From: Colwellia polaris
GTDB taxonomy: Archaea > Nanohalarchaeota > Nanosalinia > Nanosalinales > Nanosalinaceae
Length of the DNA stretch: 47,501 nt
NCBI GenBank assembly: GCA_047617785.1
Contig: JBLGBK010000007.1
Coordinates: 1 to 47,501 of the forward strand
Reading direction: 5' to 3'
The translations under genes were made by a program, and so were the position numbers. The notes beneath the pieces are model-generated. The model made no database searches and was not told the origin of the DNA. It was given only the letters and a program-made list of their open reading frames with translations. Position 1 is the stretch's first letter; the number at the start of each line of letters is the position of its first letter. Shown piece by piece: positions 2,198 to 37,524 of this stretch.

Positions 2198-3352
2198 ATG
2201 GAACAGAACTCAGAGTTCGGCGGAAAGTTCGTACCAGAACTCCTCGTACCGGTTCTCCAAGAACTGGAACAGGAGTTCGAAAAAGCAAAGAACAGTGAAG
2301 AATTCGAACGAGAGTTCGAAAAACACCTCAAAGAGTTTGCAGGAAGACCTACTTCAGTCTACTATGCAGAGAATCTCTCCGAACGTTACGGGGCAGAGAT
2401 CTACCTCAAACGAGAGGATTTACTTCACGGAGGAGCGCACAAGATTAACAATACTCTTGGTCAGGCCTTGCTCGCGAAGAAGATGGGTAAGGAGCGATTA
2501 ATCGCAGAGACAGGAGCAGGACAGCACGGTATCGCAACTGCAATGGCTGGTGCATACTTTGGCATGGATGTAGAAATATACATGGGGAGAAAGGATGTCG
2601 AACGCCAGAAGATGAATGCTCTTAGGATTGAGAAATGTGGTGCAGAGGTCAAACCGGTTGATCAGGGAGGAAAAACTCTCAAGGACGCGGTCAACGCAGC
2701 GATACAGGATTATGTCGCAAATTCGGAAGATACACATTACCTGATTGGAAGCGTCGTAGGCCCTGAACCGTTCCCAGAGATCGTACGTTACTTCCAGCAG
2801 GTGATTGGTGAAGAAGCACGGGAACAGTTCCTAGAAAAAGAAGGAGAACTGCCAGACGCACTTGTTGCATGTGTTGGAGGGGGAAGCAACGCGATAGGTC
2901 TCTTCCATGAATTTATTGAAGATGAAGAGGTCGCGATGTACGGAGCAGAGGCCGGAGGTAACGAAGAAGGTAACGCGGCCAGTATCTCTCAGGGAGAAGT
3001 TGGGATATTTCAGGGTTTCAAATCTTACTTCCTGCAGGATGATAACGGCAACATAGAAGAAGCAGAATCTGTCTCTGCAGGCCTAGACTACCCGGGTGTA
3101 GGTCCTCAGCACTCAGAACTCGACAAGATGAAACGTGCCAACTACTTCGCTGTCAACGACAACGCAGCCATGCAGGCCTTTACAGATCTCTCCGAGACAG
3201 AAGGTATCGTGCCGGCGTTGGAATCTGCTCATGCAGTAGCTCTCGCAAAAGAGCTCGCTGAAGACCATGATAAGATACTGGTGAATCTCTCAGGACGTGG
3301 AGACAAGGATATGCATACTGTAGCGGAGGTGGAAGGTCTTGAATTCGATTAA
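2198..3352 (+). CDS. trpB: Tryptophan synthase beta subunit (TrpB1 type)
   Basis: [23 protein letters not shown] (PLP lysine), [29 protein letters not shown]; AGGTGA RBS upstream. Confidence 0.97.
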
Positions 3353-4094
3353 AGAAGTATTTGAAAACGGAAAGGCCTTCATGCCTTTCACAGTCGGAGG
3401 ATACCCTGATAAGGAGATCTCGAAGCAGATAGTACAGACCTTGATCGACAGTGGAGCAGATATCGTCGAGCTAGGAGTTCCTTTCAGCGATCCGATGGCT
3501 GATGGCCCAACCATCACAGAAGCGGATATGGAGGCTCTGGAGCACGATGTAGGTGCAGATGATGTGCTTGAAGTCGCCTCAGAGTTCCCTGATACGCCGA
3601 TAGTATTGATGGCGTATGCAAATACGGTTAGAAGGTATGGCTATGAGGCGTTCTTTGATGCACTTGAGGACGCTGGTGTAAACGGGTTGATTATTCCGGA
3701 TATGCCTCCTGGCGAGTATAGAGATGAAATTGGAGAGATCGACACTAAAGTGAAGAAAATCTTTTTGGTAGCTCAAAATACGCCTGAGGATCGTCTTCAG
3801 GAGATTGGTGAGATGACAGAAGGATTTGCCTATCTTGTCTCTGTAAAAGGTACGACTGGAGCTAGAGATAGCTTTGAAAGACAGGCTGAAGAACTGATAG
3901 AGAAGACTTCAAGTCTTGAAGTGCCTAGAGCAATAGGTTTCGGCATATCCAGCAGAGATCATGTTGAAGCATCCATTAATACGGGTGCAGACGGCGTGAT
4001 TGTTGGAAGCGCACTGATTGACGCTTATGAAGAGGGAGGTCTAGAAGAGATGAAAGATCTCGCCGAGGAGCTGGAGGGAGGGGTGGAGAGATGA
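3339..4094 (+). CDS. trpA: Tryptophan synthase alpha subunit
   Basis: [16 protein letters not shown] with catalytic Glu and Asp, [20 protein letters not shown]; TTG start overlapping trpB, GGAGG upstream. Confidence 0.96.
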
Positions 4095-4149
4095 CACCCG
4101 CTTCCTATTTCAAAATCATTCCCAAAGAATCGCTTAGAGGACGATAAAA

Positions 4150-5259
4150 ATGCCAGATATTGACCCTTGGGGCGACGTAGAAGCTGGAAAATACAAAGAA
4201 AAAATGGATAAGTTCGGAATCGAACCGATTGAAGATGTAGAAGACAGACTTCCTGATCACAGGTTCATCCGAAGAGGGATAGTATTTGGTCATAGAGGTC
4301 TTGACGACTTTCTGGATGCGCGACAGGAAGGCGATGAGTTCGCGATGATGACGGGTATAATGCCGTCAGGAGTATTCCACTTTGGTCACAAATGTGTCGT
4401 CGACCAGATCAAAATTTACCAAGAAATGGGGGCGCAGGTAACAATCGCCGCAGCAGACATCGAGGCCTATAACACGCGCGATATGAGCCTGGAAGAAGCC
4501 CGGAAACTTGTAATAGAAGAATACCTCAAAAACTACGTAGCGCTTGGTATCGATCTGGAAGAGGTTGATTTCTACTTTCAGTCCAAGGCGGGCAACAATC
4601 ATCTCGCACGTGCAGCGACTTTCGGCCGTTACCTGACGCAGAACGAGATGGAAGCAACATACGGAAGTGCAAATCCTGGGAAAATGTCGGCAGCACAGAT
4701 ACAGTACGCAGATATTCTTAGGCCTCAGTTCCCGGAGAACGGCGGCCCTAAACCAACTGTTGTGCCTGTAGGAGTCGATCAAGATCCTCATATCCGGTTA
4801 ACTAGGGAAGTGGCCCGGAAGTACAGAGATCAGGAGTTCCAGAAGCCTGCGTCAACTTACAACAAGTTTATGAGAGGTCTTCAAGGCGGGAAGATGAGCT
4901 CTTCCAAACCGAAGAGTTACATCGCATTAACTGATAGTATAGAAGATGCGAAGAAGAAGATTGATCAGGCAAAAACTGGTGGAAAAGACTCCTTAGAGGA
5001 GCATAGGGAAAAAGGTGCGGATGTAGAGGAAGATATGGTATTTGAGCTTCTAGCTTTCCACTTAATAAAAGACGATGATGAGCTTCAGAGGATCCGTGAA
5101 GAGTATGAATCTGGAGAGATGCTTTCCGGTGAACTGAAGCAGATTGCGAAGGATAAGCTGGAGGAGTTCATGGAAGAGCATCAGAGGAAACGTGAAGAGG
5201 CATCTGAAGAGGTCGAGCAATATATTGAGAAAAACTTTGAATTCGACATTAATCCTTGA
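4150..5259 (+). CDS. trpS: Tryptophanyl-tRNA synthetase (archaeal type)
   Basis: RRGIVFGHR, HIGH-like PSGVFHFGH, VGVDQDPH, KMSSS. Confidence 0.95.
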   Translation: MPDIDPWGDVEAGKYKEKMDKFGIEPIEDVEDRLPDHRFIRRGIVFGHRGLDDFLDARQEGDEFAMMTGIMPSGVFHFGHKCVVDQIKIYQEMGAQVTIAAADIEAYNTRDMSLEEARKLVIEEYLKNYVALGIDLEEVDFYFQSKAGNNHLARAATFGRYLTQNEMEATYGSANPGKMSAAQIQYADILRPQFPENGGPKPTVVPVGVDQDPHIRLTREVARKYRDQEFQKPASTYNKFMRGLQGGKMSSSKPKSYIALTDSIEDAKKKIDQAKTGGKDSLEEHREKGADVEEDMVFELLAFHLIKDDDELQRIREEYESGEMLSGELKQIAKDKLEEFMEEHQRKREEASEEVEQYIEKNFEFDINP

Positions 5260-5302
5260 TCGAGGATGAACTGTTAAAGGCGTCTAATTCTATTTTTTCT
5301 TT

Positions 5303-6085
5303 ATGTTGTCGGAGTTTATCTTAAGAGAGGAGAACCTTGGTCGCTATGACTTGCTTTTTCTTACCGGTCTCCTATCTGCATTAGGCGGCTTCGTTGTGGC
5401 TATTCTTGTTCAATTTCAGGTTTCTATCTCTACAGTGGTTTTTGCCGCTCTACCTCTAGTATATCCTCTCATGTCAAAGTTCCTAAATGATGAAGATGAT
5501 GGTAGACCGCACCGTTCTGAGATAGCTAGCTATTTTTCGTTGTTCGCAGGTCAAGCTTCTGCATTTTTGATACTTGGTATGTTGGCGCGGGAAAAATTTA
5601 CCGCGCAGCTAAGTGCTATTGGAGCCACTGGTAGCTTTGTTAATATGGACTCGCTTTTCATCCAGATATTGTCCAACAATATGACTGTGTTCGCTGTAAT
5701 ATTCTTTGCCTCGGTATTTATTGGTTCTGCAGGCGCCTTTATACTTACATGGAATGCCTCGGTTCTTGGGGTTTTCTTCTCTCGGCTGCTTTCTTTTAGA
5801 GGCACTTCTGATTATGTAAGTCCTATACTGTACGTTCCTCACGCTACCTTGGAGATATCTGGATTTATCTTAGCGGGCGTAACCGGTTCTTTGGTTTCGG
5901 CAGCGCTTTATAGAAAACATTTTGACTATGATACGTGGCAAGATTATGGGCTTCTTACAGGTCTTGGTATTTCTTTGGTGATTACAGGCGCGTTCCTAGA
6001 GACAGGGATACTATATGGTTTCCTTGCTGGTCTTTTGTCGGTAATGGCCTTTGCGTACAAGCTTTACACGCTTGGCGATCTCTAG
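5303..6085 (+). CDS. SpoIIM-family multi-pass membrane protein
   Basis: About 7-8 TM segments; IxxNN, WNASVLG and PHATLE motifs. Confidence 0.75.
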   Translation: MLSEFILREENLGRYDLLFLTGLLSALGGFVVAILVQFQVSISTVVFAALPLVYPLMSKFLNDEDDGRPHRSEIASYFSLFAGQASAFLILGMLAREKFTAQLSAIGATGSFVNMDSLFIQILSNNMTVFAVIFFASVFIGSAGAFILTWNASVLGVFFSRLLSFRGTSDYVSPILYVPHATLEISGFILAGVTGSLVSAALYRKHFDYDTWQDYGLLTGLGISLVITGAFLETGILYGFLAGLLSVMAFAYKLYTLGDL

Positions 6086-6807
6086 AAAGCAGTCTGGTTT
6101 GGATAGGTCATTATGCCGTTATTCGTAATACGTAACGGGTGTATGTCTGAGGAGTGGTCTGTACGACGCATTTTGAAAACTTCAATTGTACGGGTGCGTG
6201 AAGACTCAACTCTCTCGTATCCTAGCATGATTACGCCATCAACGATAAACTCGATAATCTGGTAACGGCTGACTTGCTGAGATTGCTCGCTGTAAGGTAC
6301 CTCGGATAGAAGGCAGGCGGTAACATCGTGATCTCGTAGGAAGTCTGCTAATTCATTTACGTACTCTCTACGTACGGGGGAGGAATCAAATACCATAGCA
6401 AACTTTGTAATGGAGTCTAGTACTAGTCGGTCTGCGTCAACTTCTTCTACTTTGCGTTTTAGTTTCTCAAGGAATCTTTGTGGTTCGAAAACTTCGCCTC
6501 CAGATCCTGACTTCATTAGATTGTTTACTTCTTCGAAATGTACTTTGTCCTTGATTTCGTCGTCGTCGAAATCCATTCCGAAGTGCTTACTAGTTTCCTT
6601 AATGTTATCTACGGGTTCAGATATTGAGAAATATACACCGGTTTCGTCGTGGTTTTTTGCACCTTTGTAGAGGTATTCGGTGGTTAGCGTTGTTTTACCG
6701 CTTCCGGAGGTACCGCTGACTAGTACAATATGTCCGCTAGGTATGCCTCCTTTCAGAAGTTGGTCTAATCCTTGTACGCCGGTAACTGTCCTCTCTACTT
6801 CAGGCAT
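6082..6807 (-). CDS. KaiC/RAD55-family single-domain ATPase (intact motifs)
   Basis: TGVQGLDQLLKGGIP, Walker A GTSGSGKT, Walker B LVLDS, EFIVDGVI, KMR finger. Confidence 0.92.
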   Translation of the reverse strand: MPEVERTVTGVQGLDQLLKGGIPSGHIVLVSGTSGSGKTTLTTEYLYKGAKNHDETGVYFSISEPVDNIKETSKHFGMDFDDDEIKDKVHFEEVNNLMKSGSGGEVFEPQRFLEKLKRKVEEVDADRLVLDSITKFAMVFDSSPVRREYVNELADFLRDHDVTACLLSEVPYSEQSQQVSRYQIIEFIVDGVIMLGYERVESSRTRTIEVFKMRRTDHSSDIHPLRITNNGIMTYPNQTAF

Positions 6808-6937
6808 GCTTTAGTAATTGACAACTTTGGTTATTAAAACTAGCTCGTTTTGGTTCTTGAAAGAATATTATAAACAGCTGTCTAAAAACAATATGTAGAG
6901 GGATATGTTCTCTCTAAAAATGGAGGTATATTAATTA

Positions 6938-7636
6938 ATGCCAGATAGACTAAGCACAGGAATAGATAACCTAGACGACATGCTGGAAGGAGGAATACCG
7001 GCAAACTCAACAGTAATCATAATGGGAGACAAAGGAACGGGTAAAGGGCCTTTAGTCAACAAACTGATGCAGCAAGGATTAAATGAAGATCAAGAAGGAC
7101 TTTACCTCACGCTGGATGGGTCTCCTGACGATGTAGTGGAGGATGCTGACTACTATGGGTGGGATTTCTCAGAATACAAAGATGATCAACTTGTATTCAT
7201 AGATGGATACTCCTGGCAGGCAGGAGGTTCAGACTCAATGTACGCTCTTGACGGTTTATCTGACATGAACCAGATGAATATGACCTTTACTGACGCAATG
7301 AACGCTTTAGGAGATGAAAGAAAACGTGTAGTGGTCAACTCGGCATCAACGCTACTTCTATACACTGACTCACAGTCTACAGTAAAGCTACTCCAGGTTA
7401 TAGGAGCAAAAAGCTCGGCATCAGGAGGCGCGCTCTTCATAACAATAGAAGAAAGCACCCACGATGAACAGACACTATCAACAATTAACCACGTTGCGGA
7501 TGGAGTTATCAAGCTGAAAATGGATGGAGATGACAAGAAAATCTCTGTCTCAAGAATGGATAAAACAGATCACACGCGTGACTGGAAGACAATGACTGTT
7601 GACAAGGACGCAGGAGAGATAGATATAGAGGAATAA
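6938..7636 (+). CDS. KaiC/RAD55-family ATPase, probably catalytically degenerate
   Basis: TGIDNLDDMLEGGIP; Walker A GDKGTGKG (G replaces S/T); Walker B VVVNS (N replaces D); ADGVIKL; GGAGG RBS. Confidence 0.85.
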   Translation: MPDRLSTGIDNLDDMLEGGIPANSTVIIMGDKGTGKGPLVNKLMQQGLNEDQEGLYLTLDGSPDDVVEDADYYGWDFSEYKDDQLVFIDGYSWQAGGSDSMYALDGLSDMNQMNMTFTDAMNALGDERKRVVVNSASTLLLYTDSQSTVKLLQVIGAKSSASGGALFITIEESTHDEQTLSTINHVADGVIKLKMDGDDKKISVSRMDKTDHTRDWKTMTVDKDAGEIDIEE

Positions 7637-7717
7637 ACTCTTCTCTCACCAATCTCTTATTTTGGCGCTTAACACCTAGATAAACCCGCTTATGCCTCTT
7701 AACTCCTTCTAACCTAG

Positions 7718-7726
7718 TTTTATAAA
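7718..7726 (+). promoter_or_regulatory. TATA box of the KaiC-GTPase fusion gene (leaderless-type spacing)
   Basis: TTTTATAAA about 23 nt upstream of ATG 7749. Confidence 0.55.
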
Positions 7727-7748
7727 CAAGTAAAACATACTCATTGAT

Positions 7749-8912
7749 ATGTCCAAGATTGAACTTCCTCTAGATCGACTGAACGAGGCATTGGATGGAG
7801 GAGTAGAAGACGGATCAAACGTCCTATTCCTCGCCGACCTTGCAGTAGACAAGTCAAAATTCGCATCGGCGCTAGTAAACTATAGAATGGAGCAAGAAGA
7901 CAATGTAATATACTTCATCAATAATAAGATGCCGCAATACGTAAAGGAAAGAGTGGATAATCCGGAAAGCGAAAACTTTGCAGTAATAGATGGGTTTTCG
8001 TCTACTCTGGGGAAAGAGTCTAATGAACGCTTCCAAATCGATACTAATCTGAAAGCAGATAGAAAGGATTATATTGAAGAATCAAAGGATGTCGCAATTG
8101 ATGCAATGGAAGAAATGGAAAGTTGGGGATCGACTTTTATCTTGGACTCTCTAGACGCCTTTGTTGGCCAATGGGATGAAATGCAGGATTTCGCAGAATC
8201 TCTTAGACCAGTAGCCGGGAGAACAAGCACTGTAAATTATTTCTTACTTCCAAACCTTGGCTTTGAAGACGAAGGTGACGAACTAGAAGAATTAGAAGAA
8301 ATATTTGACTATGTAATACATCTAAAAGGCATAGAAAGATCTGGTATCATCCTCAAGTTTATCGAGATCAGAAAGCCAGACGTGGAAACACGAGTACCTT
8401 TCGACATAACTCCAAGAGGCCTCGTAATGTATGTTCCAAAACTCTTAGTTACAGGACCTTACGATGCTGGAAAGTCGACAACTGTTCAGAGTATGTCAGA
8501 GGAATCAGTATCCGTCGACCGTTTAGGAACCACGGTTGCACTGGACCACGGACAGGTTGAGAAGAAAGGATTGAAGGCAGAACTGTTCGGAACCCCGGGT
8601 CAGAAACGTTTCGACTGGGCGCTGGATTTCCTAGGACAGTCAATGTTTGGATGCTTTATTGTAGTTGACTCCCGTGATCCGAACTATGATAGAGTAGAGG
8701 AACTGAAGCAGGATCTCACAGCAGAAGAACTACCCTTTATCATACTAGCTAACTTCCAAAACAAGGATGATGCTCTCAGCCCAGAAGAGATTGAAGAAGA
8801 AACAGGAATTGAGACACTGGGAGTAGATGCTAAGAACGGTGAGAATCTAGATCAATCTCTAGAAAGGCTTATGGACAAAATCATGGATCAACACTCCTGG
8901 TACTACGCATAA
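7749..8912 (+). CDS. Fusion of an inactive KaiC/RAD55 domain and an MglA/CvnD-like small GTPase
   Basis: N-terminal LDRLNEALDGG, degenerate P-loop ADLAVDKS, FILDSL, FDYVIHL; C-terminal G1 GPYDAGKS, TTVALDHG, G3 FGTPGQ, G4-like ANFQN. Confidence 0.88.
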   Translation: MSKIELPLDRLNEALDGGVEDGSNVLFLADLAVDKSKFASALVNYRMEQEDNVIYFINNKMPQYVKERVDNPESENFAVIDGFSSTLGKESNERFQIDTNLKADRKDYIEESKDVAIDAMEEMESWGSTFILDSLDAFVGQWDEMQDFAESLRPVAGRTSTVNYFLLPNLGFEDEGDELEELEEIFDYVIHLKGIERSGIILKFIEIRKPDVETRVPFDITPRGLVMYVPKLLVTGPYDAGKSTTVQSMSEESVSVDRLGTTVALDHGQVEKKGLKAELFGTPGQKRFDWALDFLGQSMFGCFIVVDSRDPNYDRVEELKQDLTAEELPFIILANFQNKDDALSPEEIEEETGIETLGVDAKNGENLDQSLERLMDKIMDQHSWYYA

Positions 8913-8968
8913 AAGCTAGAAAAACCAGGAAAATTTAAAAATACTTAGAGATTAATGGTTTAACAAAG

Positions 8969-9334
8969 ATGGCAAGTAAAGAGAAAAAACTCCAAGAACC
9001 CTTAGATGACTTAGACGATGTTCAAAGTGTTAAAGGTGCTGCAGTTGTCCGGCGAGACGGATTATTAATCGCTTCTAACCTGAGTTCTGATATTAATGAT
9101 GATCAGGTTGGTGCTATGACGGCATCTACAGTAGGGTCTGGAGAGACGGCAAGTGAATCACTGGAAATGGGAGATGTAGAAGCAGTAACAATCGAAGCAA
9201 AAAACGGAAAACTAGTCGCTACAGGAGCAGGAGACGAAGGAATCCTAGCAATACTAACAGACGACGACGTCAACATGGGACTAGTAAAAGTCGAAATGGA
9301 AAAAGCAACAGACAAAATCAAAAGAGTACTTTGA
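8969..9334 (+). CDS. Roadblock/LC7 (MglB-like) protein
   Basis: GAAVVRRDGLLIAS, GAMTAS and NMGLVKVEM pattern; 121 aa; follows the GTPase. Confidence 0.93.
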   Translation: MASKEKKLQEPLDDLDDVQSVKGAAVVRRDGLLIASNLSSDINDDQVGAMTASTVGSGETASESLEMGDVEAVTIEAKNGKLVATGAGDEGILAILTDDDVNMGLVKVEMEKATDKIKRVL

Positions 9335-9436
9335 TTTTTCTTCACATTCTTCTAACCTTTCCTTAGTCCACTTTCCCAGTTTTACGCCTTCAGAGTTCTA
9401 TATGTTTAAAAATTTCTATCTACAAACGGTGTTTTT

Positions 9437-10816
9437 GTGAAACTTACATCTCAAGCCCGTGAAATCTACAAGGAGCTATACCAAAAAGACCAGTTAACAG
9501 TTGAGCAACTTGAGAGACAGGGATTCGACCAGAGCATGGTCAACCGTGCAGCAATAGAACTTGAAGAAAAAGGACTTGTAGAAATCCAGGAAGATGAGGA
9601 AATAGAGAGAAAACTAACAGAGAAAGGAGAACAGGTAATAGAAAAAGGAGCGCCGGAACACAGACTTCTGAAGAATCTGGAACAAGGACCTTCCGAAATA
9701 TCGGATCTAGATGTAGATAATCTTGATGTAGCTCTAGGAAAAGCACGGGAAAAAGGATGGGTTGACATAAGTGCTGGAAAAGCCTCAATAACTGATGAAG
9801 GCCATAAAAATCTGGAAAGAGATAGCCTTCAATCGCGGCTTGAAACCGGCAACTATACAGACGAACACGAAGACCGAAGTCTTATTGAAACAATAGAAAA
9901 CACGGTAAGAACACTGCAACTAGCAGAAAAGGCAGAAGTTGAGCCTGAGGACATAAAAGTCGACTTCAACGTTGAAGCAAAAGTCAAAACTCCTCGGACA
10001 GGTAAAAAACACTTTTACAAGGAAATAATATCAGAAGCCCGAAAGAACTGGATCGAAATGGGATTCCAGGAAATGCAGGGAGAATACGTAGTATCAAGCC
10101 TTCTCAACTTCGACGCATTATACACTCCGCAGGATCACCCAGCTAGAGAACTACATGACACCTTCTTCCTATCACAGCCAGAAGCATCAGATCTCTCCAA
10201 TATCAATGAAATAGCGCAAAGAATCAAAGAAACGCATGAAGACGGTTGGACAACCGGGAGTAAAGGATGGGGATATGACTGGAGCGAGGAAGAAGCTGCT
10301 CGAAACGTAATCAGGACACATACAACAGCAGTATCAGCAAAAAAACTGGCAGAACTTGAGAAAGACGATTTACCTGTCAAATACTTCACGGTAGCACGAA
10401 ACTTTAGAAACGAGACTATCGATCGTTTCCATCTACCCGAGTTCTTCCAGACAGACGGAATTGTAGTAGGAGAAGACCTCAGCTTCTCACACCTCAAAGC
10501 ATACATCAGCGAATTCTTCCACAAAATGGGGTACGAAGAATTCCGTCTAATACCTTCATACTACCCATATACTGAGATGAGCGTAGAAGTACAGGTATAC
10601 GATGAGGAAGAAGACGAATGGCTCGGACTTGGAGGAGCAGGAATGTTCCGGCCAGAAGTAGTAAAACCATTACTAGGATTCGAAGCACGTGTCCTCGCGT
10701 GGGGACTAGGAGTCGGAAGAATAGCAGCCAAAGCCGCAGGAATCGAAGACATCAGAGAGCTCTACAGAAATGACATAGGACTTCTAGAAAAGACACCAAA
10801 ATGGAGGTCTGAATAA
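9437..10816 (+). CDS. pheS: Phenylalanyl-tRNA synthetase alpha subunit (archaeal)
   Basis: NFDALYTPQDHPARELHDTF, RTHTT, FRNETID, YYPYTE, GAGMFRPEV; N-terminal winged-helix extension; GTG start. Confidence 0.96.
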   Translation: MKLTSQAREIYKELYQKDQLTVEQLERQGFDQSMVNRAAIELEEKGLVEIQEDEEIERKLTEKGEQVIEKGAPEHRLLKNLEQGPSEISDLDVDNLDVALGKAREKGWVDISAGKASITDEGHKNLERDSLQSRLETGNYTDEHEDRSLIETIENTVRTLQLAEKAEVEPEDIKVDFNVEAKVKTPRTGKKHFYKEIISEARKNWIEMGFQEMQGEYVVSSLLNFDALYTPQDHPARELHDTFFLSQPEASDLSNINEIAQRIKETHEDGWTTGSKGWGYDWSEEEAARNVIRTHTTAVSAKKLAELEKDDLPVKYFTVARNFRNETIDRFHLPEFFQTDGIVVGEDLSFSHLKAYISEFFHKMGYEEFRLIPSYYPYTEMSVEVQVYDEEEDEWLGLGGAGMFRPEVVKPLLGFEARVLAWGLGVGRIAAKAAGIEDIRELYRNDIGLLEKTPKWRSE

Positions 10817-13880: not shown

Positions 13881-15740
13881 ATGCAGCTAGGAACAGTAGA
13901 GGGAAAGGTAAACACCTCAAGTTTTGAATTTAGAGCGGTTGAAGAAGTCAAAAAATTCGATTTTGTATCTATCAAGAGCAACAATCAATGGATACTGTGT
14001 CAGGTTGATGAAGTAACCAAGCATCCGGACGGGGAAACTATAGCCAACGCTAATATTATAGGATATAGGGAAAAAGGACTTACTAAAGCACCCCGAACAG
14101 TAATCGAACCAGACTCAATAGTATATCAGGCAGATCAAGAACTTATTTCTGATACGCTCGGTCTCGATGATGAAGGGCTGCAGATAGGATCACTGGAAAC
14201 AAATCCAGAGATCGATATTCATGTTAATGCGGAGGACTTCTACAAGCATTTTGCCGTCCTAGCACAGACAGGAGCAGGAAAAAGCTACCTTACAGGAGTA
14301 ATAATTGAAGAACTGCTGGAAAACGACTTCCCTGTGCTTATAGTTGATCCACACGGAGAATACCACTCTCTAGGAAGCGCTAATCCGGATAGCGACAATC
14401 CAGATAGCTACCCGGTTACAGAATACTCTCCGAATACTGATATCAACAATGAAGCTATGCCGCTAAGATTTTCCTCGCTCAACATGGACAAAAAGGAACT
14501 TACAACACTCATACCTGATTCTCTGACTAACTCTCAGATGGGAGTTCTTTACAACGCACTTAAACGTTTGAAGGAGAAGGACGACGGCGACTACAGTCTT
14601 ATCGATATAGAAGATGCGGTTACGCAGGAAGATTCAACTGCAAAGTGGAATCTTCTGAACTATCTAGAACAACTGGAGGAGACCAATCTTTTCAGCAAAG
14701 ACCCAATCGACTTGGAGAACTTGGTTGAACCCGGGGAGGCATCGATAATCAACCTGAAAGCAGTGGAGCCGGATGCATCTGAGATGACAGTATACATGCT
14801 TGCGCAGAAGCTGTTTAATATGAGGAAGGAAAACAAAATCCCGCCGTTCATAATGATACTAGAAGAGGCACACAATTATGTGCCTGAGAAAGGCTTTGGT
14901 CAGGCACTCTCCAATCCGATAATGCGAAAAATCGCATCGGAAGGAAGAAAGTTCGGAGTTGGTATTGGCGTTATCAGCCAAAGACCGGCACGTATCGATA
15001 AAAACGTGCTATCTCAAGCAAATACTCAGTTTATACTTCGTGTAACCAATCCAAACGATTTGAAAGCAATATCTAAGAGCTTTGAAGGTATTACCTCCGA
15101 GATTGAAGATATGATTACATCGCTTCCGCCAGGTGTTGCTTTTTCACTGGGTAACGAATATCCGGTTATGACGGATGTGCGTACACGTAAGTCGCTTCAC
15201 GGCGGAGAGACTCAGACTAATGAATCCTACGTCCCTCAGGAAACTATTGAGATATTTAAGCCGAATGAGGATATTCAGAAAGTTCGTAGCAATACAGGGA
15301 AAGATTATGATGAGGCTTATTATCCGATTTACTGGGTAGAGGATGATGAAGGGATTAAGCTTGTAGACGGTGTGAATGGAAAGGTTAAAGCCGAAAGAGA
15401 TAAGCTTTCGGGCAAGCATGAGATGGTTTTCCAGCATCTGAAGGAGGATAGGTCAAAACAGGAAATCATGGAGGAGATGGATGTTGGTATATCTCGTATT
15501 GCATCGATAATTGAAGAACTTCAGAGTAGAGGGTTTTTAGACTCCGATAAGAATGCTGAGGAGAGCATAATAGATCATGAGAAAGAAGAAAAGCAAGTTG
15601 AAGAAGAAGCGCTTATTGATATAGAGGTTGATGAGCGTGATATTGAAGGCGCAGAAAATGCAGATGTGAAGCTAGTCAGGTATCCTTACTTCTCGAAGGG
15701 TGACGAAGTTTACGATCCTATACTTGAGAAGCACCTGTAG
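13881..15740 (+). CDS. HerA-like (DUF87) ATPase with HAS barrel and C-terminal winged-helix-like extension
   Basis: HFAVLAQTGAGKS, VDPHGEY, LEEAHNY, EGRKFGVG, SQRPA; tail SKQEIMEEMDVGISRIASIIEELQSRGFL resembles a wHTH. Confidence 0.88.
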   Translation: MQLGTVEGKVNTSSFEFRAVEEVKKFDFVSIKSNNQWILCQVDEVTKHPDGETIANANIIGYREKGLTKAPRTVIEPDSIVYQADQELISDTLGLDDEGLQIGSLETNPEIDIHVNAEDFYKHFAVLAQTGAGKSYLTGVIIEELLENDFPVLIVDPHGEYHSLGSANPDSDNPDSYPVTEYSPNTDINNEAMPLRFSSLNMDKKELTTLIPDSLTNSQMGVLYNALKRLKEKDDGDYSLIDIEDAVTQEDSTAKWNLLNYLEQLEETNLFSKDPIDLENLVEPGEASIINLKAVEPDASEMTVYMLAQKLFNMRKENKIPPFIMILEEAHNYVPEKGFGQALSNPIMRKIASEGRKFGVGIGVISQRPARIDKNVLSQANTQFILRVTNPNDLKAISKSFEGITSEIEDMITSLPPGVAFSLGNEYPVMTDVRTRKSLHGGETQTNESYVPQETIEIFKPNEDIQKVRSNTGKDYDEAYYPIYWVEDDEGIKLVDGVNGKVKAERDKLSGKHEMVFQHLKEDRSKQEIMEEMDVGISRIASIIEELQSRGFLDSDKNAEESIIDHEKEEKQVEEEALIDIEVDERDIEGAENADVKLVRYPYFSKGDEVYDPILEKHL

Positions 15741-23257: not shown

Positions 23258-23303
23258 AACAGTAAGAAATATTTTTCTGTAAGGTTAAATATTATTTCCA
23301 AAT

Positions 23304-23705
23304 CTACTCCTCATTACCTCTTGAGATAAGAACTCCACCCGCACCCATCTCGGCATAGCTCTGCATAGTATTAGCCATAAATTGAAGGCTTTCCTGAGAA
23401 TCCTTTAAATCTAGTTCGAAACTATCAGGGCCTTCAACCTGAACGTAAGTCGGTCCATAATTAACTACGGTCCGTACAGCGCGTTCAAAAGTCTCGCATT
23501 CAACACTAACCTCTACAACATGCGAATAACCCTGATCAATATCAGGGTGAGGATTTTTCATCTCTGAAACTTCATCAAAATTAGCTTCAATAACTTTAAG
23601 ATCCTTTTCGTCTCTTAATCCCTGGATGTGTTCATCCATAGATTCTCTTACTGCGTCTTCCTGATTCGATATCGCCTCAAAAACCATCCAAAGCTTAATC
23701 CCCAT
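23304..23705 (-). CDS. Hypothetical protein, conserved-looking
   Basis: 133-aa acidic alpha/beta ORF with YGPTYVQVEGP; no function recognised. Confidence 0.7.
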   Translation of the reverse strand: MGIKLWMVFEAISNQEDAVRESMDEHIQGLRDEKDLKVIEANFDEVSEMKNPHPDIDQGYSHVVEVSVECETFERAVRTVVNYGPTYVQVEGPDSFELDLKDSQESLQFMANTMQSYAEMGAGGVLISRGNEE

Positions 23706-23753
23706 TCTAGGTTACACCTTACAGTTAAAGCTGTAGTTGAAACAGTTATAAAC

Positions 23754-24140
23754 ATGAGGAAACCTGATATCGGGAAGAAAAAGGCAGCGATAGCTCTGGG
23801 CGCACCGATTTTAGCATTAACAATCTATATGGCCACGGGAGTAAACTACATAGAAGCAAAAGGAACATGTCATACCGAAGTAAGAAGCTGCCATGGGATT
23901 CCACTAAAAAACCAGTGTATAGGTATAGAGTCATCGACTATACAATTCCAAGATTCAAACCAGTGCTCTGAACTATCGGAAATAGAACAAAGATGCCATA
24001 CTGCTAGAAACACGCTCTGCAACTCAACAGAATACTCGGGTGACGAATGGAAGGAAACACCAGTCAAAGGGTTTTCATGCGCTGAATGGGAAAACCAGTA
24101 TAGCAACGCTATAAACTTGAAAAGCTGCGGCGCCAATTAA
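23754..24140 (+). CDS. Membrane-anchored Cys-rich protein (8 Cys; paralog of 13334-13786)
   Basis: Basic N-terminus plus hydrophobic helix from ATG 23754; CHG...CIGIE motif. Confidence 0.75.
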   Translation: MRKPDIGKKKAAIALGAPILALTIYMATGVNYIEAKGTCHTEVRSCHGIPLKNQCIGIESSTIQFQDSNQCSELSEIEQRCHTARNTLCNSTEYSGDEWKETPVKGFSCAEWENQYSNAINLKSCGAN

Positions 24141-24164
24141 CAAATAGAAGAGGGAAGCCAGAAA

Positions 24165-24584
24165 ATGGATCTAAAACAGAAAATCCAGGAAGTAGAATAC
24201 GAATACACTCTGGACCAGAACGAGCTCGGAAAAATACTGGCAATAGTATCTCTCACAATTACCCTGTTCTCTGTATACTCGATAATGAGTCTTCAACCAG
24301 CAATGGAAGAAGCACAGACTGCTGAAGATAGGCTAAGCCAACTTGATGAAGTAATAAACTCGCAACAGTTCAACCAAAGCCTAAACGCGATGGAAGACCT
24401 TCAAACCACGTCCGTAGGGGAGGACATAGATTATGCATTGCAAACCTTCCAGGGTATGCAGACCACGGTTAACGACCAACAGAAGATATACGAAAACCTG
24501 GAGAACGCAAATACTCGCTACCAGTGGCTCTTCCTGATCGGCCTACTGGGTCTTGTATCGGGTGTATCGATCAGATATGTATAA
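24165..24584 (+). CDS. Two-TM protein with a helical external loop
   Basis: Hydrophobic helices near both ends; overlaps the next start. Confidence 0.7.
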   Translation: MDLKQKIQEVEYEYTLDQNELGKILAIVSLTITLFSVYSIMSLQPAMEEAQTAEDRLSQLDEVINSQQFNQSLNAMEDLQTTSVGEDIDYALQTFQGMQTTVNDQQKIYENLENANTRYQWLFLIGLLGLVSGVSIRYV

Positions 24585-26370
24585 GAAAACCCTTCTATTC
24601 TTCTTCACGGTTTTTCTGATCATTTCAGCTGCAGCAGAATCAGAACTAACTTTACAAACCAAAAATTCAGAAGGACAAACTGTAGACACACTATTCCAAG
24701 TAAGCAACAGCTCAGGGATAGTAGCCGAATCAGAAAACAGCCTCCAGACCAACCTAACGACAGATAATACTTACAAAGTCAAACAGATAATTAAAAATGG
24801 GGAGACAAACGTAACGCTCTACGACCTGAATATAACGCAAGATCTCTCTCCAAGAATAAGGTATACGAACAGAACTGAAAAAACACCTTACCTGGAAAGA
24901 CCAGAGAAAATATATGCTTTTGACGGCTCGGATCTTGATTACAGTAACGCAGAAATCGCTTATACCAGAAATAATGCGCCGGACAATATTCTAAACTGCC
25001 AAGATTACCTGTTCGACACAAATTCATGCAGCGACTGGAGCATAAACTCATCAACCGACTACAGCATAGATCAACAGGAAGGTATTTTCAGCTATAACGT
25101 AACAGGCTTCTCAGCATACACAGCAGGAGATACAGCACCAAGACTGAACGTAACAAATATTCGGGTATACAACGTAACCGGTCTGTCAAGCACAGATCAG
25201 AAGTACGAGGGCGCAAAGATAGAGGAAGGTTTGAACAAGACTTTCCAGACCGAACAGAAAGATGAAAGCGCATCATTCCGATTCACTTTCTCTATAGAGA
25301 ATACAGGCACTGAAGACTGGAGCCTAGCCTCTGCTGATACATTAAAGCATTCAGGAATTGATACAGGCTGGACGGTAGACGATATATGGTACAATATAGA
25401 TCAAGAATACACGGGAGGAAGCTTTTCCTCCGGACAGGTTACCTGGGATACTGAACAGGGTCTACTGGCTAACGGAAGCGCGATGAATGCAAGCTACGTA
25501 ACGGATACATCTCTCCAAGACACACAGACCTATAATCAAAATTTCAAAGTCCAAGATAGCTCTACAAATGCAGAAGACACCGACCTACATATACTTGAAG
25601 CCATAAAATACGGTCGACTATCAGCTGAGATCGTAACTCCTCCAAACAATACGCTCCTAACGCAAGATAAGATCTTCAATATGACGGCCAACTTGACATG
25701 CTCTAACGGGGACTGTGGTGATGTAGAATCTCAGCCGCGTTACAATACTACCGATGGCCAGTCAGTTCTTCCAGGTTCAGGAGGAACGCCATTCGCACTT
25801 CAGGAATCCGCAACCTCCTCATGCACACTTTCTTCAAGTGAAGAATGTACAGTTGAATGGCGAGTCAACGCCACAGGAGCAATGGATACATACCATAAAC
25901 TGGACGCAAATGTTTACAGTCTCAGTTATCCCGAGATTCCGGAGAACAGCTCTGAGCGTAACAAGGTGGAGATATCGATTCCTATAGATTTCAGCCTTGG
26001 CTGGGATACCATAGACTTTGGAGCTCTCAATCCAGGTTCAGAAAATAGATCTGCAGAGGGGAATCAAAACGAAGAGTACAATATAACAGTAAGTGAGGAT
26101 AGCAGACCTATAGACAATCTATGGGTGAAAGGAGAAGATCTGACTTCCACAGAGAACACCAACTACAGTATCGGCATCAGCAACGTTTCATATAGTCTAG
26201 AAAACGATATATCAACAGAAGAATCTTTGAATAAGACATATCAGCACGTGGTATCTGATTTGAGTCCGGGAGATATACTTACTACTTTTTATTGGATTGA
26301 TGTACCGTATGGAATGACTGAAGGCGGCTACAACGGCACAATAACCTTCAAGGCGAACGTAACGGAGTGA
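24577..26370 (+). CDS. Secreted multidomain beta-rich glycoprotein with a C-terminal pilin-like domain (candidate tip/minor subunit)
   Basis: Signal peptide from ATG 24577, many NxS/T sequons, no C-terminal TM; ends IDFGALNPG...IDVPYGMTEGGYNGTITF. Confidence 0.75.
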   Translation: MYKKTLLFFFTVFLIISAAAESELTLQTKNSEGQTVDTLFQVSNSSGIVAESENSLQTNLTTDNTYKVKQIIKNGETNVTLYDLNITQDLSPRIRYTNRTEKTPYLERPEKIYAFDGSDLDYSNAEIAYTRNNAPDNILNCQDYLFDTNSCSDWSINSSTDYSIDQQEGIFSYNVTGFSAYTAGDTAPRLNVTNIRVYNVTGLSSTDQKYEGAKIEEGLNKTFQTEQKDESASFRFTFSIENTGTEDWSLASADTLKHSGIDTGWTVDDIWYNIDQEYTGGSFSSGQVTWDTEQGLLANGSAMNASYVTDTSLQDTQTYNQNFKVQDSSTNAEDTDLHILEAIKYGRLSAEIVTPPNNTLLTQDKIFNMTANLTCSNGDCGDVESQPRYNTTDGQSVLPGSGGTPFALQESATSSCTLSSSEECTVEWRVNATGAMDTYHKLDANVYSLSYPEIPENSSERNKVEISIPIDFSLGWDTIDFGALNPGSENRSAEGNQNEEYNITVSEDSRPIDNLWVKGEDLTSTENTNYSIGISNVSYSLENDISTEESLNKTYQHVVSDLSPGDILTTFYWIDVPYGMTEGGYNGTITFKANVTE

Positions 26371-26377
26371 AAAAATC

Positions 26378-27076
26378 ATGGATAAAAAAACATTTCTACT
26401 CGTATCGGCACTTCTTCTAGCTCCTTTATCCTCGGCAACTGTATTGATTGAACCTCCTGAAACAGAAGTGAACATTAACGGTCTTGAGACGAGTTTTGAC
26501 ATCGGGTTTGTTAACACGGGCGAAAAGCTGAATCTAAGCCTTGATTCACAGCCGCAGACAGATATACAGGTCGATCACTCTCAAGATATTGTTTTAGATT
26601 CCTCAGAGATAACTTCGCAACCCGAGGGCAGCAACTGGTACTATCTAGGAGAAGGAGATTATGCAAAGATACAGTACATAACTGTAGATACATCTATACC
26701 CCGAGATACAGGTACGAGAAGACATAATTTCGATTTATCAATTTCTCGGGAGTATAAGACTTCCAGATCAAGACCAAACGTTGAACAGGTTCAGGAATTT
26801 AACTTCGAGATTTTCTCAACGTCGGACTTGATTAACACTGGCTTTGAATCTCCTGAGGAATCAAACCCGGAAGAAGTCCGAGATCAGAGGGAACAGAATT
26901 CCACAGAAACTAATCAACAGGAAACACGGTCACCAGATAGTACTGTTGATGACGGCTCCAACACCTCTAGTACCGAGGAGGACACAGCAGCTAGTGGTAT
27001 TGACGGCGTTACTATTTTACTCGTGTCAGGTCTATTACTAACTGTGGGATGGCTACTCAAGGAGGTAATGCTGTGA
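26378..27076 (+). CDS. Single-pass surface protein (Ig-like domain, S/T/E linker, C-terminal TM)
   Basis: Signal peptide, FVNTG beta pattern, low-complexity linker, terminal hydrophobic helix. Confidence 0.75.
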   Translation: MDKKTFLLVSALLLAPLSSATVLIEPPETEVNINGLETSFDIGFVNTGEKLNLSLDSQPQTDIQVDHSQDIVLDSSEITSQPEGSNWYYLGEGDYAKIQYITVDTSIPRDTGTRRHNFDLSISREYKTSRSRPNVEQVQEFNFEIFSTSDLINTGFESPEESNPEEVRDQREQNSTETNQQETRSPDSTVDDGSNTSSTEEDTAASGIDGVTILLVSGLLLTVGWLLKEVML

Positions 27077-29232
27077 GAAAGAAAATAGCTCTAATGGCTC
27101 TTACAGCGCTTATAATACCCTCTGCACTTGCTTCATACCAGGTAACGGAAGTCACCGGCGATGAAGAGATAGCTGCCGGTGATGCGCTCAACTTCAAATT
27201 AAATACTACAGAAGAAGCAAACTATACTGCCGATCTTATAGACAGCAGCGGCGACGTAGTTTTCTCCAACAGCGAACTTCCATTCCTGAAAAATCAATCA
27301 GTTCAGAACGAAACACATTACATATATGGCTTCAACTACACTCTGAGCGAAGACGCCCGTGTAGGTAGCTGGAAATCATCGGCCTACAACGGATTTTCAC
27401 AAGTCAGCGAATATCGGTTTGAGGTGGTTGCTCAAGAACTAAGAATAGTAGAGACCGAATCATTCCCCTTCTTCAAGAATACGGATGATAATGTAATAAT
27501 CCAAACTAATGTAACGAACGCCGAGGAAGAAGTAGATAGCATATCTCTAACAGTTTCAAATACTTCAATTCAAGACTCAGAGATGCAGAAGGTACAAAGC
27601 ACAGACGCTATAGATACATATCAGTACAATACAGGAGAACTAGGCCAGGGAAGCTACAGTTATGACGTGAACTTACAAGGAAGCGAGGGAACGCAAAAAT
27701 CCGTCTCAAAAAACTTTGAAGTATACTCCAGCAACAGAGACGCGGATCATTCAGATATCAATGTAGGTATAGCCAGCCTCTGTGGAACCTCAGTTACACA
27801 GTTCAGACCACCTGGTGGAGGAATCCTACCTACCGGAAGAGAAGGATCTTTCCTACTAAGCTTCACAAACAACGCCAGCTCGACTTCCAACGTAACTGCA
27901 AGCCTCAACGTCACCTTTCAGAACGAAACAGAATGGAGTCCTGAAGACGGTCTTGAGGAGATAGGAAACCAGACAAACAAAACTTATGAGGCCATGAATG
28001 AGACAGATCTAACTCCCGCTAGCTCATTTTCCGCAGCTCGTACTTTTCCAAAGACTAATCAGACAGGTTACTACTTGGGTAGGCTTAAAGTCAATACAGA
28101 ATGCCGTATAACTGATGGAGCTATTCAGGATCCTATAGTCTATGGTACGCAGACAGCCAATACGACCGATTACGTCAATTTCCGAGTGCTAGTAGCTGGA
28201 GGAGATACAGGCGGAAGTGGAGAGCCAATAGAAGAACCTATTCCGAGAGACGCTAACCAGACAGGGGAAGAATCAAACGAAACTGTGGAAGGAGATAACG
28301 ATAATCCGGGGCAAACGCCGGTACCTGAGCCTGAACCGGTACCTGAGCCTGTACCTGACCCTATACCGGCGTTAAGCCTTAATATTGAAGCGGTGAACAG
28401 CAGTGTTTCCACGCCGAGAGGAGGATTTCAAGAAGTAGAACTAAGGCTAGAAAATCTTGCTAACGCATCTATAGAGAACCTAACCATAAGTCCTCAAATC
28501 AGCAATCTACCTGGTGATTGGGCATCTCAACAGGCTTCTGTATCAGAATTAAGCCCTAATGAAACCGCTAAAAGATCAATATTCCTTAATCCTTCCCAAA
28601 ATGTGCGGCCAGGTACGTACAGAGTAAGTATTTACGGTGGAAACGGCGAAAGACTTCTGGATGTTGAGCGAATAGACTTTACTGTATTTGAAAATACTAC
28701 GGAGTCCAGTATACGTATCTCGGAGGCGCCAGAAGTCGTCAGGATAAGCAGCGGTGAATCACAGACAATACCTTTACTTGTCGAAAACCTCGGGGAGGAG
28801 GCGGTAGAGAACTCTACATTGACAGTTCAGAACTTGGAGGACTGTGGTGAAGCCTCAGGAAGCTACAGCACAAGCATACAACCGAACTCTTCAGAATCTA
28901 TCAGTCTAAACATCACTTCTGTATCTGAACTACGCGAGTGTGATGCAACAATCATCGTTTCGACGCCTGAAGGATCTTACTCATTCGCTGATATGCGTGT
29001 AGAGGTTGTGCCTGATGAAGGTTTTGTACCTCCTGAACTCAGGTTTCCGATCTTTGCTACGGCATGGACGGTACTACTTATCCTTTACTCAGTTGTTATG
29101 ACTCGCTACAACCTGAACTCGCTGCGCTTAAAGATCCCATACCTAGTCTTGATTGTTGTAGAAGCAGTGATATTCCTGTACATAGCAACAGAGTTCTACG
29201 GAATAATACCACCGGAACTATTACCTTTCTAG
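27073..29232 (+). CDS. Large membrane-anchored multi-Ig (CARDB/NEW3-like) surface protein
   Basis: GTG start after GGAGG; signal peptide; LENLAN/VENLG and RPGTY Ig patterns; Pro-rich hinge; 2 C-terminal TM helices. Confidence 0.8.
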   Translation: MRKKIALMALTALIIPSALASYQVTEVTGDEEIAAGDALNFKLNTTEEANYTADLIDSSGDVVFSNSELPFLKNQSVQNETHYIYGFNYTLSEDARVGSWKSSAYNGFSQVSEYRFEVVAQELRIVETESFPFFKNTDDNVIIQTNVTNAEEEVDSISLTVSNTSIQDSEMQKVQSTDAIDTYQYNTGELGQGSYSYDVNLQGSEGTQKSVSKNFEVYSSNRDADHSDINVGIASLCGTSVTQFRPPGGGILPTGREGSFLLSFTNNASSTSNVTASLNVTFQNETEWSPEDGLEEIGNQTNKTYEAMNETDLTPASSFSAARTFPKTNQTGYYLGRLKVNTECRITDGAIQDPIVYGTQTANTTDYVNFRVLVAGGDTGGSGEPIEEPIPRDANQTGEESNETVEGDNDNPGQTPVPEPEPVPEPVPDPIPALSLNIEAVNSSVSTPRGGFQEVELRLENLANASIENLTISPQISNLPGDWASQQASVSELSPNETAKRSIFLNPSQNVRPGTYRVSIYGGNGERLLDVERIDFTVFENTTESSIRISEAPEVVRISSGESQTIPLLVENLGEEAVENSTLTVQNLEDCGEASGSYSTSIQPNSSESISLNITSVSELRECDATIIVSTPEGSYSFADMRVEVVPDEGFVPPELRFPIFATAWTVLLILYSVVMTRYNLNSLRLKIPYLVLIVVEAVIFLYIATEFYGIIPPELLPF
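28318..28368 (+). repeat. Coding tandem repeat for the PVPEPEPVPEPVPDPIP hinge
   Basis: CCGGTACCTGAGCCTG at 28318 and 28336, plus a degenerate third unit. Confidence 0.8.
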
Positions 29233-30669: not shown

Positions 30670-30695
30670 ACAGTTTACTTATTCTCCCCCCGGTA

Positions 30696-31643: not shown

Positions 31644-31645
31644 CT

Positions 31646-33544: not shown

Positions 33545-33655
33545 ACAAACAATAGATGTTCTGTCTCTGAATAAAAAGACTATCAACGTATGAATTCTAG
33601 GTTCTAGTTTAGTTGTTCAAGAAAAGAAAAAAGAGAAATAAATGAAGTTTAGGAT

Positions 33656-35049: not shown

Positions 35050-35133
35050 GCTTCATGTCTGAAACCTGGTTTTAATCCCTGTTCTTTACCCGTTAAAACC
35101 TATTAAATACGGGTCCACCCCAATAATATAGTT

Positions 35134-37488: not shown

Positions 37489-37524
37489 AGCTTTAAAGTA
37501 GTCAAGCACCAAATACATAACCAG

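Follow-up and report, generated by a model that had tools for sequence, protein, structure and literature searches.

A small G domain fused to a dead KaiC domain belongs to a widespread archaeal family with a Roadblock partner and recurrent KaiC-like neighbors

The 47,501-nucleotide contig analyzed here (JBLGBK010000007.1, positions 1 to 47,501 of the forward strand; hereafter the window) comes from an assembly named Colwellia polaris (GCA_047617785.1) that GTDB places in the Nanohalarchaeota. It is contig C7 of a 787,359-bp genome in 22 contigs with an estimated completeness of 96.55%. At 6082-9334, the original prediction, made from the letters of the DNA, had seen a trio of KaiC-like domains, the third of them fused to a GTPase, and a Roadblock protein, and all four open reading frames (ORFs) lie where it had placed them. 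The locus raises the question of whether a fusion of a KaiC domain and a small G domain is a peculiarity of one reduced genome or part of a conserved system and, in the latter case, what such a system might do. We found that the fusion is not a local oddity but a widespread archaeal family, because relatives are encoded in 425 stretches from many archaeal phyla. We lean, by a little, towards reading the locus as an old, widespread, and apparently uncharacterized archaeal module in which a switch is docked on a KaiC-type assembly and is served by a Roadblock regulator.

The fusion protein (7749-8912, plus strand) has 387 amino acids (aa). Residues 1-225 (7749-8423) are assigned by profile and structure to an inactivated KaiC domain (iKaiC), and residues 226-387 (8424-8912) by motifs and a model to a Ras-superfamily small G domain. 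Searched as a single sequence, the N-terminal part was weakly KaiC-like (ArlH, E = 1.7e-4; thermo_KaiC_1, E = 1.9e-4) and gave no row at E ≤0.01 for the Pfam KaiC family PF06745. A profile of the 69-sequence family matched the KaiC-like protein PH0284 (2dr3) in the PDB at E = 5.2e-29 and KaiC at E = 8.3e-29. We observed the same relationship in the AlphaFold model of the fusion, which had a predicted local distance difference test (pLDDT) score of 86.2 and a predicted template modeling (pTM) score of 0.79: its top Foldseek match was 2dr3 (E = 2.3e-15, TM 0.78-0.80), and VIA alignments gave Z = 24.2 with a root mean square deviation of 2.3 Å over 214 residues against 2dr3, and Z of about 21-22 against KaiC CI domains. 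In this model there is no linker, the final KaiC strand leading directly into the opening strand of the G domain. The Walker A motif GxxGxGK[ST] was present in the N-terminal domain of none of the 69 family members, and the position of the Walker Lys is occupied by Lys in only 33 of them. Profile and structure are decisive for the KaiC identity of the fused domain, and the loss of Walker A marks it as dead.

The whole-model VIA search covered fusion residues 1-301 only, and the G domain was therefore modeled alone (pLDDT 86.4). The G domain (residues ~228-380) matched the small GTPase models TIGR00231 (E = 3.1e-10) and Arf PF00025 (E = 3.1e-7), with the P-loop GPYDAGKS and the G3 motif FGTPGQ. 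Among the 69 members, the switch-I TT pair is invariant, and both G1 (GxxxxGK[ST]) and G3 (GT[PIT]GQ) are present in 69/69, so that the GTPGQ-type motif noted in the original prediction turned out to be a property of the whole family. The domain thus has the hallmarks of MglA at G3, namely Thr in place of Asp (TxxGQ) together with an intact P-loop, and a Roadblock/MglB gene, expected within four genes for this family (PMC4316618), is adjacent here. In size it departs from the family: the survey of prokaryotic small GTPases by Wuichet and Sogaard-Andersen (2014, PMC4316618), in the portion of its text available, dropped sequences above 240 aa, and the window protein, with its N-terminal iKaiC, is not a single-domain protein of ≤240 aa.

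Three residues before the TT pair, Arg is found in 61 of the 69 rows of the family alignment and Lys in five. Bacterial Group 1 MglA carries an intrinsic arginine finger in switch I, which we take to be Arg53. When the G-domain model was compared with solved structures, Arl3/Arl2 (Z = 18.2), Rab8, Arf6, and Myxococcus MglA (5ymx_B, Z = 17.4) fell within one Z unit of each other, and Arf, Arl, and Rab chains filled the best 60 of 714 profile matches, with MglA absent from those 60. Structure thus gives a tie, and by sequence the G domain appears nearer to Arf, Arl, and Rab than to bacterial MglA; apart from the G3 Thr, it has a generic Ras-superfamily fold. By sequence, stand-alone small GTPases of other archaea are 36-48% identical to the G domain, and bacterial conservon-type "ATP/GTP-binding proteins" are 30-36% identical.

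The guanine-recognition motif is where the window protein leaves the family pattern. Instead of the canonical NKxD, its G4 reads NFQN, as it does in 18/18 rows comprising the window protein and 17 others at least 53% identical to it, all of nanohaloarchaeal type; the remaining rows have NKxD (47) or NKxN (4). G5 is also changed in this group, to G[VI]DA versus T[VS]A. The four NKxN members lie outside the Nanohaloarchaeota (L028, L034, L065, and L072), and the Asp-to-Asn change therefore arose more than once in the family. In NKxD it is the Asp that recognizes the guanine base. Ras and EF-Tu mutants in which Asn replaces this Asp favor xanthine nucleotides, and ATP is the preferred nucleotide of YchF-type proteins, which have an altered G4.

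It is thus conceivable that the nanohaloarchaeal G domain is no longer a guanine switch, and either uses another nucleotide or has become a constitutive pseudo-GTPase that serves as a structural subunit. The uniform NFQN and the altered G5 speak for this idea, which we regard as a serious candidate though we doubt it. In the same 18 rows, however, G1, the switch-I TT pair, and the Gln of G3 GTPGQ are strictly kept, and a Roadblock gene is retained beside the NFQN fusions, which together with the intact G1-G3 argues for a working hydrolytic switch. An NKDD sequence also lies three residues downstream of G4 in the window protein, although it is not conserved and reads NKEG, NKEE, or NMDD in close relatives. 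Since G1 to G3 stay intact, the nanohaloarchaeal switch probably still hydrolyzes a nucleotide, but because NKxD reads NFQN in this lineage, "GTPase" is an uncertain name for the G domain of the window. Apart from this lineage-wide change, the window locus is an ordinary member of the family.

The Roadblock/LC7 (MglB-family) protein is encoded 56 nt from the fusion gene (8969-9334, plus strand) and has 121 aa. It matched PF03259 at E = 5.4e-17 (61.8 bits; cut-off 23) and, in the PDB, the Roadblock protein 7f8m (5.2e-14), CvnB5 (7.7e-6), and MglB (0.004). It scored 18.4 bits against the MglB equivalog NF052242, whose cut-off is 200, and by that model it is classed as a Roadblock protein and not as an MglB ortholog. 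The genome has a second stand-alone Roadblock gene on contig C3 (41561-41926; L082 4062-4427); its two neighbors, as judged by eye, resemble a pyrophosphatase and a class I tRNA synthetase. The two genes are homologous from ATG to stop; because the last ~245 nt are identical and the first ~125 nt have ~20 differences, the pattern suggests gene conversion between the paralogs. We considered an assembly artefact as the source of the second copy and rejected it, as fusion-bearing relatives have one to four Roadblock copies and one complete, one-contig genome has three.

How far does this arrangement extend? A search of 5.8 billion proteins returned 440 matches to the fusion, in one series of about 387 aa running from 100% down to ~53% identity and a second at 39-44% identity (381-400 aa), in which many proteins have both KaiC and GTPase Pfam domains. 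A pattern scan of a database that represents each prokaryotic species by one genome matched 441 stretches, and 425 of them encode a relative of the fusion. By their record titles, these come from Nanohaloarchaeota, Aenigmatarchaeota, Micrarchaeota, Altiarchaeota, Woesearchaeota, Bathyarchaeia, Methanosarcinales, Methanoperedens, Methanocellales, and Halobacteria; the 79 loci kept for closer study also include Nanoarchaeia, other Thermoproteota, and Alkanophaga. A language-model atlas likewise contains six clusters from archaea, 376-399 aa in length, that combine these Pfam domains. The fused N-terminal domains fall into one group (support 95) in a FastTree tree of 78 KaiC-type domains, from which we conclude that the fusion arose once; on this phylogeny the archaeal family is old and has a single origin.

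We then asked which genes accompany the fusion. Neighborhood counts rest on 79 loci kept from the 425 relatives, in which ORFs were called and typed by hidden Markov models (HMMs) grown from the window proteins; the KaiC neighbors were further typed by clade-specific HMMs, as typing KaiC2-like genes by motif regular expressions proved too strict and missed clear members. Of the 72 loci with ≥450 nt of downstream sequence, 65 carry a Roadblock gene no more than 1.5 kb from the fusion. There are 53 full-context loci, with ≥1.5 kb to either side; 48 of them contain a Roadblock gene, 42 a stand-alone KaiC-like gene, and 38 both. KaiC2-type genes are found within 1.6 kb in 36 of these 53 loci (46 of all 79), with an intact Walker A in 10 of 48 genes. 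KaiC1-type genes are found at the same distance in 21 of the 53 (25 of all 79), with an intact Walker A in 24 of 27 genes, and the two types occur together in 16 of the 53. The linkage that the original prediction had asked to be surveyed is thus conserved, and the four-gene arrangement recurs across phyla and is therefore far beyond chance. No further neighbor family recurred across lineages when 748 neighboring ORFs were clustered; the third-largest cluster is an antisense shadow of the Roadblock gene.

A survey of 70 genomes of the phylum gave a second view of the same association. The full-length fusion is present in 21 of them, distributed over the window organism's own family (9/50), a second family (10/10), a third (2/8), and two single-genome families (0/2). 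Roadblock was found in 20 of the 70: 19 genomes have both genes, two the fusion only, one the Roadblock only, and 48 neither. In the two genomes with the fusion alone, it borders the end of its contig in the direction where Roadblock would be expected, and the sole Roadblock-only genome is 72% complete. Orthologs of KaiC1 (64-92% identity) occur in eight of the 50 own-family genomes, all of them fusion-bearing, and in the same cluster as the fusion in seven of the eight; other matches are ≤40% identical. KaiC2 matches occur in the same eight of the nine fusion-bearing family genomes, and the other 41 genomes have neither a KaiC2 match nor a KaiC1 ortholog. Since KaiC1, KaiC2, and Roadblock track the fusion, the four genes come and go as a block. 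The fusion is missing from 49 of the 70 genomes, including several one-contig genomes that are 95-99% complete, and is therefore dispensable for the lifestyle and outside a minimal symbiont kit. The remark in the original prediction that such a system would be elaborate for a reduced genome thus holds for the 787-kb genome at hand, but loses force in that most genomes of the phylum do without the fusion. The patchy, block-wise distribution marks the module as optional equipment in nano-archaea. Among four archaeal control genomes, a Roadblock match was obtained in Methanocaldococcus jannaschii only, and the common models Haloferax, Sulfolobus, and Methanosarcina acetivorans thus probably do without the module.

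Two single-domain KaiC paralogs, divergently transcribed, complete the locus in the window. KaiC1 (6082-6807, minus strand) has 241 aa and is predicted to be an active KaiC-like ATPase. It matched PF06745 at E = 1.8e-60 (204.6 bits; cut-off 26.6), its Walker motifs are both intact (A, GTSGSGKT; B, RLVLDS), and it keeps one of the two catalytic Glu residues (ISEP versus the consensus FEEP). Among the three KaiC domains, KaiC1 alone has the catalytic set of Walker A GxxGxGK[ST], catalytic Glu, and Walker B Asp. KaiC2 (6938-7636, plus strand; 232 aa) matched PF06745 at E = 1.2e-28 (100.5 bits; same cut-off) and DUF7504 at E = 9.3e-10. Its Walker A, GDKGTGKG, keeps the Lys and loses the Ser/Thr, the catalytic EE is replaced by LD, and Walker B has become VVVNS with loss of the Asp, making KaiC2 a probable pseudo-ATPase. 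Both degenerate motifs reported for KaiC2 in the original prediction, GKG and VVVNS, are therefore present, and its grading of the three domains as active, degenerate, and dead stands up to Pfam, motif, and profile analysis.

KaiC2-type proteins share the motifs F-I/V-D-x-Y-S-W, G-P-S-D-L-N (S-D-x-N), S-T-L-L-L-Y, and G-M-H-D-E across phyla. They are the closest stand-alone relatives of the fused KaiC domain, and in the window genome no protein other than the fusion itself matches the fusion profile better than KaiC2 (1.4e-28). In the FastTree tree, KaiC1 sits in a clade of 16 rows (support 100), most of them KaiCs with an intact Walker A that are found alongside the fusion in other phyla, and clusters with the KaiC1-type genes of the L020/L023/L036 lineage, which has the same four components in a different gene order. 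Neither paralog looks like a clock protein: KaiC1 scored 110.9 bits against TIGR02655 (cut-off 546.25) and 161.6 against NF006799 (cut-off 408), and each of the three proteins has a single KaiC domain and not the circadian CI-CII double architecture.

Contig C2 carries a second divergent KaiC pair (L083, 4000-4995 on the minus strand and 5103-5657 on the plus strand). One member has 331 aa, with a C2H2-like zinc-finger region at its N terminus and an intact Walker A (GNPGSGKS); the other is a degenerate KaiC-like ORF of 184 aa. Two large acidic coiled-coil or surface-type proteins are encoded beside the pair.

To examine contact between the fusion and KaiC2, the complex was modeled from the full fusion (69-row alignment) and KaiC2 (42-row alignment) alongside three controls. 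The interaction prediction score from aligned errors (ipSAE) was 0.72, 0.67, and 0.63 (median 0.67), compared with 0.00 for the best control; the ipSAE mark is reached by 116 of 157 solved complexes and two of 215 mismatched pairs, a calibration that is rough here, where our own alignments were used. The runs had at least 89% of contacts in common, with a partner pLDDT of at least 88. The predicted interface involves fusion residues 29-36 (the dead P-loop), 58-64, 134-140, 168-171, and 196-199, and KaiC2 residues 93-122 (including the conserved S-D-x-N loop, 108-112) and 141-154, in the geometry of neighboring subunits in a RecA/KaiC ring. Binding of KaiC2 to the dead P-loop face of the fused KaiC domain is therefore supported, not demonstrated. 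Of the hetero-oligomeric KaiC ring in the original prediction, the contact between KaiC2 and the fused domain is supported, by a complex model only.

An alternative is that the locus holds two independent units: a self-contained fusion and Roadblock, in which iKaiC only homo-oligomerizes or acts as a scaffold, and a KaiC1/KaiC2 pair that is merely adjacent. KaiC-like proteins do form homo-hexamers (2dr3 has six chains), 11 of the 53 full-context loci have no stand-alone KaiC-like gene in the 1.5 kb around the fusion, most other nanohaloarchaeal loci have the fusion and Roadblock without an adjacent KaiC gene, and the divergent KaiC pair on contig C2 is unrelated to a GTPase. However, KaiC2-type genes are within 1.6 kb of the fusion in several phyla, as counted above, and 21 of 48 abut the fusion ORF or overlap it by ≤2 nt, although such overlaps may be overstated, with ORF starts taken as the first ATG, GTG, or TTG. 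Orthologs of KaiC1 and KaiC2 are also confined to the fusion-bearing genomes of the family, and the predicted complex of KaiC2 with the fusion passes its controls. We consider separate units unlikely on this evidence.

For a switch docked on a KaiC-type assembly, we propose the following scheme. The G domain would act as a nucleotide-driven switch, in keeping with its intact P-loop, switch-I Thr, and G3 Gln. A Roadblock dimer may serve as its GTPase-activating protein (GAP), its platform, or both, as MglB does for MglA; homology, adjacency, and co-occurrence point this way. iKaiC would hydrolyze no ATP and would instead be a docking subunit that engages the putative pseudo-ATPase KaiC2 at the interface typical of KaiC rings, as in the complex model. 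The switch might thereby be placed on an assembly that contains, or communicates with, active KaiC1, and the ATP or autophosphorylation state of KaiC1 could be coupled to the nucleotide state of the G domain. The fullest version, a hybrid machine widespread in archaea with a ring of dead, pseudo-active, and active KaiC subunits, in which an ATP-driven and perhaps phosphorylation-timed KaiC cycle and the Roadblock-regulated G switch gate each other, with the nanohaloarchaeal switch running on a non-GTP nucleotide, is one to which we give a low probability.

Several points weigh against a docked and regulated switch. Most other Nanohaloarchaeota (L007-L019 and L024) have the fusion and Roadblock and no adjacent KaiC paralog, and docking to KaiC paralogs is therefore not obligatory or goes through unlinked genes. 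The complex may have passed because of its likeness to the solved homo-hexameric rings of KaiC and PH0284, and not because of pair-specific binding. The KaiC1- and KaiC2-type HMMs were built from the same loci that they classify, and the possible overstatement of abutting genes applies here too. The genomes of the phylum are kin, and the block-wise presence of the four genes may reflect few evolutionary events or a single clade. NFQN at G4 questions the use of GTP by the window copy. Each module gene has its own A/T-rich stretch upstream, so that a single operon is no more than a possible arrangement; no RNA was listed among the 18 sequencing runs that contain the stretch. Lastly, we found no experimental study of any family member in the literature.

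Transcription signals bear on the same issue. The divergent intergenic region between kaiC1 and kaiC2 (6808-6937) is 130 bp long and A/T-rich, and contains GGAGGT 10 nt before the kaiC2 ATG. That a promoter lies in this region is inferred only, and we treat the A/T-rich boxes upstream of the module genes as resemblances only.

What might the module act upon? The original prediction had suggested polarity, host attachment, or filament placement, none of which found support. The neighborhoods offered a single recurrent hint at an output: a PilB/T2SSE ATPase gene directly follows the KaiC1-type gene in five of the 79 loci (L020-L023 and L036), and none accompanies the module in the window. In L022, this gene (8353-10044) encodes a 564-aa PilB/T2SSE-type ATPase with a PilB3_C domain. 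The module could accordingly regulate a type IV pilus or an archaellum-like motor, in a G-protein counterpart of the way MglA controls pili, with the KaiC paralogs acting as ArlH does on the ArlI/PilB ATPase. The window KaiC1 groups with the KaiC1-type genes of those loci, the window genome has four T2SSE-type ATPase genes, and, as far as the available portion of a published pili survey goes, archaeal pilus loci often contain genes for KaiC family ATPases and for Roadblock proteins (arCOG02603) (PMC4858521). Yet the four T2SSE genes all lie on contigs other than that of the window, 74 of the 79 loci lack a pilus ATPase within 4 kb, and PAS/GAF neighbors in five loci or V4R neighbors in four fit a general-purpose switch better. 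A dedicated pilus or motor regulator is thus distinctly improbable in our estimate, even though the pilus link is the best lead on output.

A role in DNA repair or recombination, like that of RadB/RAD55, can be raised on two grounds. KaiC1 and KaiC2 have weak matches to RadA, RadB, and Rad51 (E = 1e-3 to 1e-11), and genes for an XPD-type helicase (nine loci) and an Nre protein (11 loci) flank the fusion and Roadblock in other nanohaloarchaeal loci (L007-L014, L017-L019, and L024). These flanking genes, however, have the opposite orientation and are confined to a single lineage, where they are probably lineage synteny; tRNA synthetase genes are equally "conserved" neighbors at this depth, and such synteny says little. 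KaiC also beats RadA/RadB as the best family match by tens of orders of magnitude, and we regard a repair function as very improbable.

A SpoIIM-like membrane gene (PF01944, E = 2.4e-9) at 5303-6085 converges on kaiC1 with a 4-nt overlap. We rejected it as a fifth component, as the linkage exists only in the six closest loci, in which tRNA synthetase genes are equally conserved. Upstream, the stretch at 2198-5259 holds a beta-like (PALP) and an alpha gene of tryptophan synthase and, after these, a gene for a class I tRNA synthetase of the Trp/Tyr type; the 0.79-Mb reduced genome thus keeps part of an amino-acid pathway. Downstream, a 619-aa HerA-type (DUF87) ATPase is encoded at 13881-15740, alone after a nucleoside diphosphate kinase gene. 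Genes for a MoxR AAA ATPase, a DUF58 protein, and a vWA protein lie on the minus strand at 30696-33586, surrounded (23300-40200) by about 10 ORFs of 133-891 aa with no Pfam match or, in two cases, a small domain only, and a MinD/ParA-type ATPase is encoded at 40222-41004. MoxR/vWA and MinD-like proteins are described as pilus-associated regulators in the pili survey, in its available portion (PMC4858521).

The module brings together two signaling principles in one conserved unit, a G-protein/Roadblock pair and KaiC-type ATPases. The G-protein/Roadblock pair is ancestral to the eukaryotic Rag-Ragulator and to MglA-MglB, and KaiC-like ATPases were reportedly proposed by Makarova, Galperin and Koonin in 2017 to be the main signaling hubs of archaea. 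Coupling between the two, if true, would provide a concrete system in which to test how information is relayed by KaiC-like hubs, and a prokaryotic example of an ATPase ring that controls a Ras-like switch. The lineage-wide replacement by NFQN is, in addition, a natural experiment on nucleotide specificity.

A full-text search of the literature turned up no description of a KaiC-GTPase fusion with Roadblock, although it is quite possible that Makarova et al. 2017 already list the fusion. The term iKaiC, for inactivated KaiC domains fused to signaling domains, is used in a 2018 paper (PMC5847659), whose available text credits Makarova et al. 2017. In the portions of text available, a 2024 paper on Asgard GTPases and Roadblock proteins (PMC10933270) does not mention KaiC, the pili survey (PMC4858521) contains no description of the fusion, and literature on Nanohaloarchaeota that mentions KaiC gave no link to a GTPase. 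The available part of the small GTPase survey places archaeal Group 4 MglA mostly in methanogens, reports no conserved neighbors for it, and leaves KaiC unmentioned (PMC4316618).

The locus can be set against four known systems. With the MglA/MglB switch of Myxococcus xanthus and Thermus thermophilus it shares a Ras-superfamily G domain, the G3 Thr (TxxGQ), and an adjoining Roadblock/MglB gene; it differs in the 387-aa length of the window protein, its N-terminal dead KaiC domain, and its NFQN at G4 and, unlike in MglA systems, no RomR/RomX-type partner was seen. The actinobacterial conservon (CvnA kinase, CvnB Roadblock, CvnC, and CvnD GTPase) is likewise a signaling cassette of a G domain and Roadblock, but the Pfam matches of the window ORFs include neither a CvnA sensor kinase nor CvnC (DUF742), and KaiC-type partners are present instead. 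As in cyanobacterial KaiC, the fusion has two P-loop domains per chain, the first with the KaiC CI fold, and its predicted contact is at a ring-type interface; its first domain, however, lacks Walker A, its second is a Ras-like G domain and not RecA-like, and the Pfam scan of the window identified no KaiA or KaiB. Finally, KaiC1, KaiC2, and the fused domain share the fold and family of the archaeal single-domain KaiC-like ATPases (PH0284/2dr3, PH0186/2zts, SSO2452/2w0m, and ArlH). What sets the locus apart from these is that a KaiC domain is here fused to a small G domain, with a Roadblock protein and a putative pseudo-ATPase paralog as its neighbors.

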